Source: a virus (Duplodnaviria; Heunggongvirae; Uroviricota; Caudoviricetes). From it: 11,797 nt of DNA. The stretch's first letter is position 1. Every line of letters begins with the position of its first letter. The stretch is taken from IMG/VR virus record IMGVR_UViG_2740892233_000017. One strand, written 5' to 3'. Position numbers: made by a program. Of this stretch, positions 6,001 to 11,797 are shown piece by piece.

Positions 6001-9000
6001 ACCGGAGAGCTGGTTGACGCTTCCGGGATTTTCCGAAAATTATTGGTTGACGAATCTTTATTTTCCCGAAAGTTTCCGGACTGAAGCATGGCTTCGCGGC
6101 AATCGTTCCAGCCTGTAGCGTATGCAGCCGCTTTGCTGCTGCCTTCAACTGGCGCATCCTGCCAATACATTTCTTCCGGCACTATCGGCGCTGGAGGGGC
6201 GGCAAATAGATATCCGCCAAAGTCAGGAAGCTCTCTAATGGCCTGTACGAATTTTTGTTTGCCTACGTCAACCCCTAATGGGTAATGAGCTATAATCTTT
6301 GCCACCGGCTCTGCTTCCAGCGATGCCAGCGCAATCCGTGCCAGCTCTTCCGCTTCTTCTGCTGGAAGCACAACGTTGCTACCCGGTCCGTATGTTTCGC
6401 GCCAATGCTGGATTGTCAGCAGTCGATCTTTGGTAAAAGTGGTCATAGCTATTTCACCTTAATCTCAACATTTCGCAGCTTTAGCTCTACTGGCAGGTCT
6501 GACTTTCCTGTTAATGCTAATGCGAGATTTTCTGGAGTAGTGAGAACAGTTATTGTTTTCCCCCTCGCCAGACGAATAATCATGTGTATCTCGCTATCGT
6601 CACATGCTCCTGGTCGAACAATTGAGATTTGTCCGTTCATCTCACTCTCCTTTGATGCGAATGCCAGTAGCGCGGATTGCATCGATGACTTCAGAAACTT
6701 TGTATGCCATTACCGTTTGGTAATCATCGTGAAAATCTGTTCGATGNNNNNNNNNNCGGGCGTTCGGAATAAAGGAGCCTGACGTAGATTATCCAGTGAC
6801 GGTAGTCGAGGCTAAGGGCTTTCTTAAACTCATACCCACGTCTGCGGTAGTTATGAATCAGCCATTCGGCCTGTTCTTCAGTGCAGGGATCGTGCTGATA
6901 CCAGTCATATTTGAATGTGTGAGAACACCGCCCTTGCCTGCTGGCAGGGGCGATATCAGAATTGTGATGTTTGGTATTGTGCGCCATCGGTTTTCTCTGC
7001 TGGCGCAGCAGGTGCCAGTTGTTCAAGCTGGCGTGCGGCAATATTGTCTCTGATTTCTGTTGTCGTCAACAGGCAACGTGCTATCATCGAATGGTGTTCT
7101 ATCCTACTCCGTGAGGTTTACCATGCGTACAACCCAACAATTCAGCATTACATTAACTAACGAAATGGCTGACATGGTGCGCGCCCGTGTGGCTTCCGGT
7201 GCCTATGCTTCAGAAAGCGAGGTCATTCGTGAAGGGCTTCGCGCACTGAATGAGCGCGATAAAGCAATCGAAGCGTGGTTAACGCATTCAGCCGCCCCCT
7301 CTCTTGATTCTATCCGCGAAAATCCAAACAACGGACGCTCCATTTCACAGGTTCGCGCCGCGATTCGATCCGGGAAGTAATCTGCATGACATATGAAGTC
7401 ATCATTACTCCTGAGGCCGAACAACAAATAATCAACCTGCACAGGTATATAACGGAGAAAGCAGGGAACGTCATTGCTGACAATTATGCCAATGCGCTTC
7501 TTGATTATCTTGATGGGTTTTCTACATTCCCGCATCGGGGCAATAAACGCGATGATATTCGCCAGGGGATGCGGGTAACTCATTTCCGCCACAGAACGAT
7601 TATTGCTTTTGCCGTTGATAGCAGAAAAGTCTTTATTGTCGGTATCTATCATGGTGGGCAAAGTTATGAAACCGATTTCTTATAAACTTTTACCCACATC
7701 ATTCCGGTGTTAGAATTAACCGTCCGCCCCCTCTCTTACTGGCGGATTCGTAGGCTATATAAATCAAAGATCCCGGCTCATGTTTATGTCGGGATCTTTT
7801 TTCGGCGATTTATCCCCAGCGGCAAATCGAATACACCACCAGCGCCACCGCCATCGCAATTCCTACCGTTGTGAATGCTTCAGGCCAGGTCATCGTAAAA
7901 TATCCTCCACGCTTATCAGTCCGTTCCGCTCCAGATAACTCATCGCCTTATCCGGTAATTTGCAGTCTGGCTTCGCTTTCCTCAGTTGCCAGGTTAACTG
8001 CTTTACCAGCATGGTTAACTCATCGACCAGACGCTGATATCCCACTGGTTTGTATTCATGCAATTTACCGGCTGGCTCTGCTGCCAGCGATACCAGTGCG
8101 ATTTCCAGAACAGCAATATCCATCTTATATGTGCGGATGATGTCATGGTCGATTGTGCCCGGTATGCACAGTCTCTGTGTTTCAATAGTCTCCTCTGCGT
8201 GAGCTATTAACTGCTCTCTGGTAAAAGTCGTCATGCCGTAGCCCCTTCTTGATATTTTTCAAACCAGAACACAACTGGGTCAGATTTCATTTCAACCAAT
8301 CCCATACGAACCAGCGCTTTGCCTTTCCCGGACGCAAGGAATTCACGACGACCATCACTGATAATTCGCCGATAATCTTCCAGACTACTGCAATGCTTGT
8401 GCAGATTGCATGGGTGGCATGCCGGAACCATGTTGGATATATCGTCACGTTCCTGGTGAAGCATATTTCCATCAAAACGAATGACCGGTTTTACATGGTC
8501 TGCATGCCACTTTTCGCCAAGTTCGCAGCCGCAATAAGCACAGCGACCGCCGAACTTCATGCGCAGCTCTGCACGTTGTTTTTTCGTCAGTGCCATATCA
8601 GCTTTCCTTATACGGATTAATTTTATTGTGCAGTGTGCTGAACGACGCCCACACCACGTCGTTATACAATTCAATAACTGGCTCAATTATTTTCACGATA
8701 AACCAGACCAGTAATAGCGGGGGTATCGGTATCATCAACACGATAAATATAATGAGAAACAAAAATTCTGTCGCTCTACTTTTTCTCGGATATTCTTTTC
8801 TGAATAATGTAGTCATTTCTTACCGCCCTTTCAGGCGGCCTCCTGATGTTTTGAGGGTGCAGAAATCCCTCCGGTTAAGGATTAAATTTTTAACTAAATT
8901 TAATTATTCAGGCGCGATAAGCTGTTCCGCACAATCCAGCAATGCTTCTGTCGCTTCCTTAAGCGTTACTGTATCGCTATCATCCAGTCCTGCAACTTTT

Positions 9001-11797
9001 TCGTACCTGACAAACGCCGCGCAAAGCTCGTTAAACAACCCCGCCCGTACTTCAGCCAGGAAAGCGTCGGTGGCCGGAGTTTCAGGAATCCGTCTCCTCA
9101 TCCGTTCTATTGCATGATTGAACCCGAAATCTTCAGCAAGAGATACGTCATCCATATTGTCATTGTCGTCCTCAATATCCCGTGGTTCTGGAATTGCAGA
9201 CTTTATTACCGCATTCTCCGCCGCCAGCGCCACAAGATTAGCTTTCAGCTCTGCAATTCGTTTGTTTTGGGCTTCCCGTTCATCCAGTAGTGCCAGCGCA
9301 ACATTTGGATTAAAAGCAGCAATAAATTCAGCGTTTGCATAAGCCTGAACATCTGTTTCAACCAGGCAGTTAACATGACATTCTGCAATTACGCCACCGG
9401 GCTCTCCTTTCCATTTTTGACAAACAAAAACTCCTGTTATATTCCCATGCTGATTGCCCGATGTATGCCCTACGATGTAGCATCCTTTAGTTGCTTTCTC
9501 TGCTGCTTCACGCAGCGCCTGATAGTCAATCTCGCTCATTCATCGCCCCACTCATCACAATATGCTTCGACCGGATTTTTTCCTGCTTCATAATCATCAC
9601 GCCATGCTTCAGCATCAGCAGCACTGCCACCACGTAACTCTGCATATTCCATTAACAGTTCATGCCATTCTTCAAAACTGACGCTGTATTTAGTTGAACC
9701 AAAATCAGCCATTTTGTTCTTCCTCTTCGTCTTTTATTTCGTGATATGAATAATTGCAGTAGTTAAAGAAAATATCTTTTGCTTCGTCATGTATTTCATC
9801 AGGCGTCGCATCATCATCCACTTCGAATTCATCCTCGAAATCTCCACCGGCTATTCCCGTTTCAATAATTATTTTAAACTTTCGCATTTAACTACCGCCC
9901 TTTCGGGCGGCCTCCTGACATTAATCGTTGTGGTAACTCATGGCTTCATTTGCAACATCAACCGGATCAACCTCCCTCCAGCAATAATTTGGGTCGGCTC
10001 CTTCAGGCGTCCACGGTTCTAATTCATNNNNNNNNNNTTCCATTTGTTCACCACGGGTAAGCCCGTTTTCAAGCGGATTTTTAATGAACAATTCAATACG
10101 TTCTTTGGTAATAGTGGTCATGTGTTACTCCTTAACCCGCAGTGCTTTCAACTGATGAGGGGAACAAAATCTTTTCATCAAACCCTGCATTCATATCATG
10201 AACAGCAACACACCAATCCATCGACGAACGATTATCAAGAGCCTCCATGATTTCATCCATGCGGCGTAGGTCATACAGGTAAATGCTTTTATCGCCAATG
10301 GTGTAAAAGCCAATTTTTTTCGGTGATGGACAGCGATCAAGAACTTCCTGTAATTCGTTCAACCATGCCCGTTCTTTTTTTGTCAAAGTTGCCATATCAG
10401 TTTTCCTTATACGGATTAATTTTATTGTGCAGTGTGTTGAATGACGCCCATACCACGTCGGTATACAATTCAGTAACTGGCTCAATTATTTTTCCGATTA
10501 TCCAGACTAGGATTAACGGGGATATCGGTATCATCAACACGATAAACAGAATGAGAAACAGAAATTCTGTTGTTCTACTCTTTCGCGGATATTTTTTCTA
10601 AATAATGTGACCATTCATTACCGCCCTTTCGGGCGGCCTCCTGACATTAATCGTTGTGATAACTCATAGCTTCATTTGCAGCATCAACTGGATCAACCTC
10701 CCTCCAGCAATAATTTGGGTCGGCTCCTTCAGGCGTCCACGGTTCTAATTCATTTTTTGCCGCATTCTCATCGCCAGTAATTTTAAAAATCTGCTCAGAG
10801 AATTTTCTTGCCCACTCGTTATATTTTTCCGCATTAATGGCTTTCTGTGTATTTAACATAAATATACCTCCAGTTCAGGATTAGATTTTATTTACAGCGC
10901 TAAATTTATTTATTCAGTTCTGGATTTTGTCGCCCTGCGTATCCGCGCTTTCGCGTTACGTTCAATCTGAATTAACTTTTCTATATTTTTCCGCCTTTCC
11001 TGTTCCTCCTGGCGCAATAGCCTTACATCATCTGCCAGTCTGGTTTCTCTTTTCGCCACAGAGAGCATCCAGTCAAACGGCTCCACAACCGCACCGCAGA
11101 TTTTACAGCGGACCTGGCGCTCTTTTTCGTCAACCCGAACAGAGGCGTGATGACAATATGGTCTTTCCGATGGCTCATAAAGAAAATTAACCTGATTACG
11201 AGGGTCATCCTCTTTTACCGGAAATAAAACGATATTGCTTAACTCATCCTCTGGTTTTATTTCCATGCTCCTCTCCTTTGATGCGAATGCCAGCGACGCG
11301 TAATGCGTGTTCTAGGTCAATCAGGTAAAGCCAACTGCCATTTTCTTTAGGTATCATGACATGTCGCTCATCTGCATTTATCGGGTGTCCATATCGAAGG
11401 TCGTAGCGAGTCGGTAATTGAACTTCCCGCGCATCCAGTTCAGCAATACGCTTGCTCCCATCAGAGATAACGCCTTCGTAATACTCACGCTGCTCGTTGA
11501 GTTGTGATTTTGCTTCTTCCAGTCCATCCAGCAAACCAGCGATAATATCCGCTTCCCGATGACGGATATGACGCTTAAACGCAGCAAGAGCCGCATCACA
11601 ATCCCGTTCAGCATTTGGGCTGTCCGGGGTAGCCTGATACCACGCCAGCGTCGACTGATAGTTTTGTGCTGCCTCACGAAGCGCCTCATAGTTAACCTCT
11701 CTCATCGAGCCACCTCCTGATAAATCACCGCATGCCCCAGTTTCTCCGCCAGTGCCAGCTCTGCCTTAGCGCCCGCTGACCGCTGCCAGCCATTCAG

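Follow-up and report, generated by a model that had tools for sequence, protein, structure and literature searches.

Background

Why should proteins with unrelated C-terminal domains end in the same few residues? The question is raised by a stretch of 11,797 nucleotides of viral DNA (Caudoviricetes; IMG/VR record IMGVR_UViG_2740892233_000017), which as a whole is called the window below. It carries two copies of a sequence that encodes GIRIKGE near the 3' ends of genes related to ea22 of phage lambda, and each copy is directly followed by another gene. Dydecka et al. (2020) pointed out that the C-terminal domains of Ea22 from lambda, 933W, phi24B and P27 are unrelated and all end in K/R-G-E, with the comment 'significance unknown'; neither a ribosome-binding site (RBS) nor a downstream gene is mentioned there for this ending (PMC7093339). 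In the GenBank record of phage P27, the depositors annotated an RBS at AAGGAGA within the 3' end of the Ea22 gene.

A nuclear magnetic resonance (NMR) paper of 2024 describes Ea22 as a mosaic, three-part protein with two or three variants per Shiga toxin (Stx) prophage (PMC10834534; PDB 8DSX), and the expanded family proposed in a first-pass annotation of the window was therefore already known. What is known of its pro-lysogenic function and tetrameric state comes only from experiments on lambda and phi24B (PMC7093339, PMC10834534). Martinsohn et al. (2008) cite cases in which phage modules are exchanged via short conserved flanking sequences (PMC2327257).

Here we suggest that the answer lies in the DNA. 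The tail of Ea22-family genes is probably a module junction that carries the Shine-Dalgarno (SD) sequence of the next gene and has been spread and reused by recombination among Escherichia lambdoid phages. We infer its downstream function, and translational coupling across it, from geometry and comparative data only.

Two copies of the junction

The features of the window on which the argument depends are the following.

6449..6640, minus strand: downstream gene of 63 aa (MNGQISIVRPG...), PHROG 1222; RefSeq WP_001014298.1 has the same start.
6642..6746, minus strand: 3' fragment of a third Ea22-like gene, 34 codons plus TGA, ending ...IRATGIRIKGE, recognized by identity to WP_000034212.1.
6645..6667, minus strand: junction core copy 2, the 23-mer CTGGCATTCGCATCAAAGGAGAG, with SD AAGGAG at 6652..6647, TGA at 6644..6642 and ATG at 6640..6638.
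6747..6756: 10 N in a row, either a scaffold gap or masked sequence, which break two different genes.
6757..6987, minus strand: codons 1-77 of the 90-aa hypothetical protein WP_001342259.1 (RefSeq), PHROG 1212, outside the Ea22 family.
8904..9539, minus strand: Ea22-like gene of 211 aa with a full PF13935 domain (Pfam), ending LIAPE, without the GIRIKGE tail.
10910..11266, minus strand: downstream gene of 118 aa (MEIKPEDEL...), PHROG 1621; RefSeq WP_000403783.1 has the same start.
11244..11705, minus strand: Ea22-like gene of 153 aa (Pfam PF13935 and BLASTP to lambda Ea22); RefSeq coding sequence WP_001209480.1 is of identical length.
11271..11293, minus strand: junction core copy 1, the same 23-mer, with SD AAGGAG at 11278..11273, spacer AGGAGC at 11272..11267 and ATG at 11266..11264.

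The 23-mer occurs exactly twice in the window and in none of 200 shuffles. At both copies AAGGAG lies 6 nt 5' of an ATG, at 6640 and at 11266, within the 5-9 nt usual for a sequence that pairs with the 3' end of 16S rRNA, and these same starts are used by the RefSeq annotation of identical DNA, in agreement with the first-pass proposal that the KGE codons form the SD of the two downstream genes. The copies differ in the position of the upstream stop: at the first of these starts TGA (6642-6644) precedes the ATG by 1 nt, at the second the stop comes 23 nt past the ATG, at 11244. Both forms are common. Genes of the 63-aa type, which here starts 1 nt past the Ea22-like stop, follow the tail in 17 of the 141 contexts described below. 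The 118-aa gene overlaps the 153-aa Ea22-like gene by 23 nt and has its putative SD inside that gene; it belongs to the commonest downstream partner (47/141) and has a weak zinc-ribbon match, below the Pfam cut-off. No promoter or terminator, antisense included, was found overlapping the tail at either copy.

The 153-aa reading frame had been described as ending at GIRIKGE. This needs correction: the frame reads ...AGIRIKGEEHGNKTRG and then stops, so that an extension of eight codons, EHGNKTRG, carries it 23 nt into the next gene. A programmed frameshift or read-through fusion at this GAGC-ATG form was considered and dropped, there being no slippery sequence; the eight codons are no more than the 5' end of the next gene in another frame. 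A further example of such ordinary packing in the window is caggaggtggctcgATGA, the end of the gene that precedes 11705.

The tail in other phages

We gathered 80 loci through Ea22 N-terminal peptide patterns and 120 through an exact 18-mer of the tail, and fetched 272 loci overall. A peptide search with G[IVLM]R[IVLM][KR]GE gave 182 occurrences, of which 178 read GGCATTCGCATCAAAGGAGAG and the other four had GGT as the first codon. After removal of duplicates there remained 141 distinct contexts of 380 nt, in which a start codon was counted if it opened at least 25 codons. Such a start was present in 133 of them, 132 times at +4 after GAG (128 ATG, 4 GTG) and once, as ATG, at +2. Of the eight contexts without such a start, seven keep the ATG at +4 in front of a decayed open reading frame (ORF), and the start codon itself is missing in lambda only. 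There Ea22 ends ...SDAGIRIKGE, encoded by the same DNA as in the tail (ctggcattcgcatcaaaggagagTGAgat), and ATC stands in place of ATG. The expectation that GIRIKGE is followed by a start codon in related phages is hence borne out in the great majority, and homologues whose 3' end leads to no intact downstream gene are a minority made up of lambda and the few decayed contexts.

The spacer after GAG takes two main forms, TGA-(G/T)-ATG and GAGC-ATG. One and the same downstream gene (MEIKPEDE...) is found with TGAT-ATG, TGAC-GTG and GAGC-ATG; loss of the stop codon therefore leaves the spacing of 4 nt intact. The 70 residues upstream of the tail fall into 21 clusters (a few of them fragments or stub ORFs) and the downstream proteins into 19 types, joined in 61 combinations. 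A short patch of identity at a gene boundary, between unrelated flanks and in so many combinations, is what one expects of a linker. Many complete prophages have at least two copies of the tail or at least two Ea22 genes.

True matches to the tail are confined to Escherichia-group phages. A degenerate scan of 185,579 species genomes for GIRIKGE in any codons, followed by a stop, gave no true case with synonymous codons; it returned lambda contamination, five true phage sequences, all of which carry the exact 21-mer, and matches due to chance. About 38 assemblies of unrelated taxa, among them Streptococcus equinus, Prevotella pallens, Streptomyces, Bradyrhizobium and Piscirickettsia (loci L207-L265), contain the exact lambda ea22 3' end on short contigs, most likely through contamination with lambda DNA.

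Extent of the conserved patch

An identity profile was computed over 1,554 context pairs in which both the upstream and the downstream side differ, with positions counted relative to the end of GAG; -18 to -1 are constrained by the search pattern, -23 to -19 and the ATG are unconstrained. Per-base identity is about 0.25 upstream of -31, 0.4-0.6 from -31 to -24, 0.84-1.0 from -23 to -1 and 0.94-1.0 at the ATG (+4 to +6), and it is at background beyond +7. In pairs with the same upstream module identity stays at 85-100% to position 0 and drops to background past the ATG, and in pairs with the same downstream module it rises at about -30. These steps would place the breakpoints of module exchange inside the patch.

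The conserved unit is 23-30 nt long, longer than an SD, and identical even at synonymous sites, and it stands between many unrelated upstream domains and many unrelated downstream genes. The first-pass statement that protein end and initiation signal are conserved as one unit is right in that the two occur together in 133 of 141 contexts, but it understates the unit, which exceeds the SD. SD function would explain AAGGAG. Selection for an SD alone leaves a patch of this length unexplained, and a shared recombination junction would account for it; what lies outside AAGGAG seems better explained by spread and upkeep through recombination.

How could such a patch work? Some 23-30 nt, (CGC GCC) GCT GGC ATT CGC ATC AAA GGA GAG, are read upstream as (RA)AGIRIKGE, and the same bases contain the consensus SD AAGGAG 6 nt before the next start, with TGA-N-ATG or GAGC-ATG as spacer. 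To judge by this geometry, translation of the downstream gene may be initiated from the patch, and is then probably coupled to the end of translation of the upstream ORF. It would also be the only homology available for Red- or RecA-type swapping of the neighbouring modules, so that each exchange would re-create it. If correct, the K/R-G-E ending would be a by-product of the SD and therefore not a protein motif.

A nucleotide signal or a peptide

Ea22-family ORFs defined by an N-terminal hidden Markov model (HMM) only gave 91 distinct 3' ends, and 79 of these have an SD-preceded start within -30 to +15 of the stop. Several tails depart from the common one.

AGIRIEGE: ata gaa gga gag TGAGATG.
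AGIKEESE and AGISIKEE: aag gag gag ... TGATG.
xLRKGGNQ: aaa gga ggc aac caGTGA, in which GTG starts a further Ea22 gene placed in tandem, as in O104:H4.
AGIRIKRGE of 933W: aga ggt gag TAATG, which opens an unannotated 57-codon ORF.

The residues change in these variants and a purine-rich SD is kept at working distance. Other non-synonymous tails that keep GGAG are ADIRIKGE (14 ORFs), AVICIKGE and VNIRIKGE. Over the seven tail codons we count about four non-synonymous and three synonymous substitutions, too few for a ratio of the two rates (dN/dS). In 47 of the 141 contexts the tail is internal and not C-terminal, being followed by eight residues that are set by the 5' end of the next gene. In about 17 contexts tail and ATG are kept behind a stub ORF, such as VSEISYQASITAGIRIKGE..., in which the tail is joined to an Ea22 N-terminus. 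On the side of a peptide, it is the frame encoding GIRIKGE that is long and open in 131 of 132 contexts. Taken together, these comparisons favour nucleotide-level causes of tail conservation over a peptide function.

Two side observations belong here. Mini-ORFs that begin with an Ea22-like N-terminus (VSEISYQAS) or with MTTITKERIELFIK and run in frame to ...AGIRIKGEEHGNKTRG were seen in several loci (L003 at 3616-3759; L086, L088, L102, L103, L148, L176, L186 and L192; PHROGs 37408 and 19884); they look like deletion scars that retain the junction and the downstream gene. In 933W (L271, about 3932-4105, minus strand) the unannotated 57-codon ORF, MRVACIGLLPYP..., opens at the TAATG that ends the Ea22 gene and is followed by an ATGA-overlapped ORF, MKNRKAKILLVRR..., where the record has an unannotated gap of 270 nt.

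Ea22-like genes of the window

The left edge of the window is wrbA (1..579, minus strand), followed by an integrase gene (576..1910), a gene resembling an excisionase gene and then many small genes in one long operon on the minus strand. Blocks of this DNA match Stx2a phages such as ArgO145 at 98% identity, and other blocks are 100% identical to the Stx2a prophage at wrbA of E. coli O104:H4. This block identity marks the window, by sequence, as the early-left accessory arm of an Stx-type lambdoid prophage at wrbA.

Both intact genes pass the curated cut-off of 27 bits for Pfam Ead_Ea22 (PF13935), as expected from their first-pass assignment: the 211-aa protein with 135 bits (E=3.5e-39, full domain, aa 2-164) and the 153-aa protein with 43.5 bits (E=6.2e-11, aa 3-66). 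The N-terminal HMM built in this analysis picks the same two ORFs. BLASTP aligns the 153-aa protein with lambda Ea22 at 40% identity over 118 aa (lambda aa 1-118, E=5e-17), and the 211-aa protein over its first 16 residues only (13/16, E=8e-5). The central coiled-coil region of lambda Ea22 covers residues of about 20-101. A protein search with the 211-aa query returned little but near-identical E. coli entries, which confirms the annotation and adds little more. The 153-aa protein seems to consist of an Ea22 N-terminus, a coiled-coil segment, a C-terminal domain of its own, AGIRIKGE and the eight further codons. GIRIKGE is not shared by all members in the window: the 211-aa member ends ...LIAPE, and the 87-nt spacer after its gene carries a different junction element. 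A side observation concerns the name of WP_001209480.1 in RefSeq, 'sigma-E factor regulatory protein RseB domain-containing protein'. Pfam MucB_RseB matches the coiled-coil-like segment (aa 65-116) with 23.3 bits against a cut-off of 22.3, and the name probably derives from this marginal match; it looks like a misnomer.

The interval 6642..7041 had been taken for one Ea22-like ORF interrupted by a gap. This is ruled out, as the N run separates two unrelated genes, the 3' end of an Ea22-like gene and the gene of the 90-aa protein, and with 10 N the left and right parts sit in different frames. The 34-codon fragment on the left is 100% identical to aa 102-135 of WP_000034212.1, a 135-aa Ea22-like protein of the O104:H4 Stx2a prophage. 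In complete genomes WP_001342259.1, on the right, ends 13 codons beyond the N run and is followed by a DUF968 gene. The Pfam profile search found no PF13935 match in 6645-6743 or in 6756-7041; 6642..6746 is, by identity rather than by profile, the only part of the interval that is assigned here to the family. What stands of the earlier description is the fragment that ends in GIRIKGE next to the start at 6640, and the family in the window comprises two intact genes and this fragment rather than a third full member.

The two flanks of 6747-6756 were not seen adjacent in any complete E. coli genome. Over hundreds of bases each of them agrees with complete genomes at 100% identity, the left one with the O104:H4 prophage and the right one with several chromosomes of Stx-producing E. 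coli (STEC). A second run of 10 N lies at 10028-10037; both runs adjoin sequence that is repeated elsewhere in the window and look like scaffold gaps at repeats.

Weighing the explanations

The tail might be a functional protein motif, i.e. a C-terminal tag, a degron or a partner-binding or oligomerisation peptide, in which case the SD would be a coincidence of its codons. It was published as a K/R-G-E motif common to otherwise unrelated C-terminal domains (PMC7093339), its frame is almost always long and open, and the residues just before it are loosely alike (...R-A-A/T-G...) in several domains. We regard this as quite unlikely, for a C-terminal peptide should not become internal in a third of the contexts, with eight residues from the next gene's 5' end after it, nor be retained behind stub ORFs. 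Tails with changed residues (ADIRIKGE, AGIRIEGE, AVICIKGE, VNIRIKGE, AGIKEESE) still keep GGAG, and the lack of any synonymous-codon version in the species collection is unlike an old motif under purifying selection. According to the NMR paper, 64 residues of the Ea22 102-182 fragment are structured, and 102-111 could not be assigned (PMC10834534). This count would fit 112-175 and leave 176-182, and with them the tail, perhaps outside the lambda fold, a reading which is ours and absent from the paper. Nor is it probable that the tail is just left over from shared ancestry or from a recent horizontal transfer and has no present role as linker or RBS, though we give this somewhat more weight than the peptide. 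The true occurrences are all in Escherichia-group phages with the exact 21-mer, and lambda has kept the tail without a start codon. Descent alone, however, would not join the same 23 nt to some 20 mostly unrelated upstream clusters and 19 unrelated genes, nor keep it in one frame, 4 nt from the start, with flanks at background while the patch is 84-100% identical. That the two copies in the window result from an assembly artefact, a collapsed or misjoined repeat by an N run, is very improbable. Copy 6645-6667 does lie 80 nt from the first N run, whose flanks are adjacent in no complete E. coli genome, and the second run adjoins a repeated module. But each flank is 100% identical to complete genomes, where the tail and the downstream gene are real DNA, and many complete prophages have more than one tail or Ea22 gene; what is uncertain is the join only.

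The explanation that we prefer, a junction carrying an SD and maintained by recombination, has its own difficulties. At 23-30 nt (near-perfect identity over 23 nt, and over about 30 nt in many pairs) the patch just reaches, or falls short of, the length needed for efficient recombination by Red or RecA; for Red-beta, De Paepe et al. (2014) quote about 30 bp (PMC3945230). Selection for the SD does not account for its non-SD part, GGC ATT CGC ATC. The 120 loci picked by an exact 18-mer bias the sample towards invariance, and with all matches in the Escherichia group, recent common descent alone could give the identity of the tail. In lambda, ea8.5 starts about 190 nt beyond the tail and no gene lies nearer, which shows that a tail may be retained where it serves no start. 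RNA folding of four junction contexts gave no consistent structure that masks the SD (z = 0.0, +1.7, -2.2 and -0.7) and would thereby demand coupling.

A second junction element and other observations

Another recurrent element, tcAGGAGGCCGCC(Y)GAAAGGGCGGTA with an ATG 4-6 nt behind it, occurs three times in the window (8796-8846, 9868-9918 and 10594-10644, minus strand), before three different genes (MTTLFRK..., MRKFKII... and MVTLFRK...). Its parts are AGGAGG, which resembles an SD, a GC hairpin closed by a GAAA loop, and a start codon 22-24 nt after the SD, and it is reminiscent of hairpin-bridged 'split' ribosome-binding sites. Of the 272 loci that we fetched, 44 contain its 24-mer. Several downstream genes that otherwise differ, in the window 5550..6446, 7890..8234 and 9921..10121 (minus strand) and in many loci elsewhere, open with MTT(F/I)T(K/R/D)(E/D)(R/Q/K)L...; in this operon, then, homology at module boundaries may also be provided by conserved gene starts.

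Pieces of a module are duplicated within the window, 8576-8798 against 10375-10597 (87%) and 9888-10027 against 10614-10753 (96%). They comprise a DUF4014-type gene and the start of an HNH-like gene, as well as a C-terminus, ...ELEPWTPEGADPNYCWREVDPVD.ANEAMSYHND, common to two otherwise different small proteins; ArgO145 is without the extra copy. A ParD/ParE-type toxin-antitoxin pair (7060..7380 and 7386..7685, plus strand) is inserted, against the direction of its neighbours, midway in the early-left minus-strand operon, and has the same setting in ArgO145 and several STEC prophages. Rfam sRNA-Xcc1 (RF02221) matches 5236-5325 (minus strand) with 65.4 bits against a gathering score of 53, directly upstream of an antirepressor gene (4556..5224). 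The Rfam search matched no other family in the window, and this match is away from the tail copies.

Implications

Placement of an SD in the last codons of the upstream gene is ordinary in tightly packed phage operons. The feature described here is apparently an undescribed instance of two well-known things, an SD in the last codons of the upstream gene and a short conserved module boundary. It reveals no new kind of system, only an ordinary kind of phage module junction. It does offer a simple explanation for the 'K/R-G-E motif of unknown significance', which is probably the SD of the next gene read as codons. There is a practical side to this: deletion or C-terminal tagging of ea22 may act polarly on the downstream gene, because in P27 and in phages of the window type the downstream RBS or start lies inside ea22 or 1 nt after it. 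The tail is also a clean, countable junction for following the reshuffling of lambdoid accessory modules, and as such bears on the debate between linkers and illegitimate recombination.

A bolder suggestion, which we make tentatively and consider doubtful, is that the accessory (ea / exo-xis) arm of Escherichia lambdoid phages is an array of cassettes held together by very few standard junctions, GIRIKGE/AAGGAG and AGGAGG-hairpin-ATG being two of them, selected for two jobs, the hand-over of ribosomes and service as homology linkers for Red-type recombination. If true, it would be an analogue, by homologous recombination, of the shuffling of integron cassettes.

Comparison with known systems

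The closest relatives are lambda Ea22 (P03756; C-terminal domain PDB 8DSX) and the Stx variants V1-V3, whose N-terminal motif MSEI-YQALREAAE is found in the window proteins. The putative coiled-coil segment KS-LNEQREYYEGVISDGSKRIA of lambda Ea22 appears also in the 153-aa protein, and lambda and P27 Ea22 have the same AGIRIKGE ending with identical DNA. As in the window, the lambda and Stx variants are mosaic genes whose C-terminal domains can be exchanged, and a prophage is reported to have several of them (PMC10834534). In contrast to lambda, neither intact window protein has the sequence of the lambda C-terminal fold and the 211-aa member is tail-less, while the lambda tail precedes ATC and no gene.

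Coupled operon junctions with an SD in the last codons of the upstream gene (ATGA, TGA-N-ATG) share AAGGAG 6 nt before ATG and, in the TGA-N-ATG form, an upstream stop 1 nt before the start. They differ in that here many gene pairs without homology have exactly the same SD codons, and in that the GAGC-ATG form has its upstream stop 23 nt past the start. Linkers of the modular theory, together with relaxed recombination by Red (PMC2327257, PMC3945230), differ in that the tail is only 23-30 nt long (the lower limit for Red-beta), lies within coding sequence and doubles as an RBS, and in that recombination is deduced here. What they have in common with it is a near-identical patch at the boundary of unrelated modules, in many combinations, among related temperate phages.

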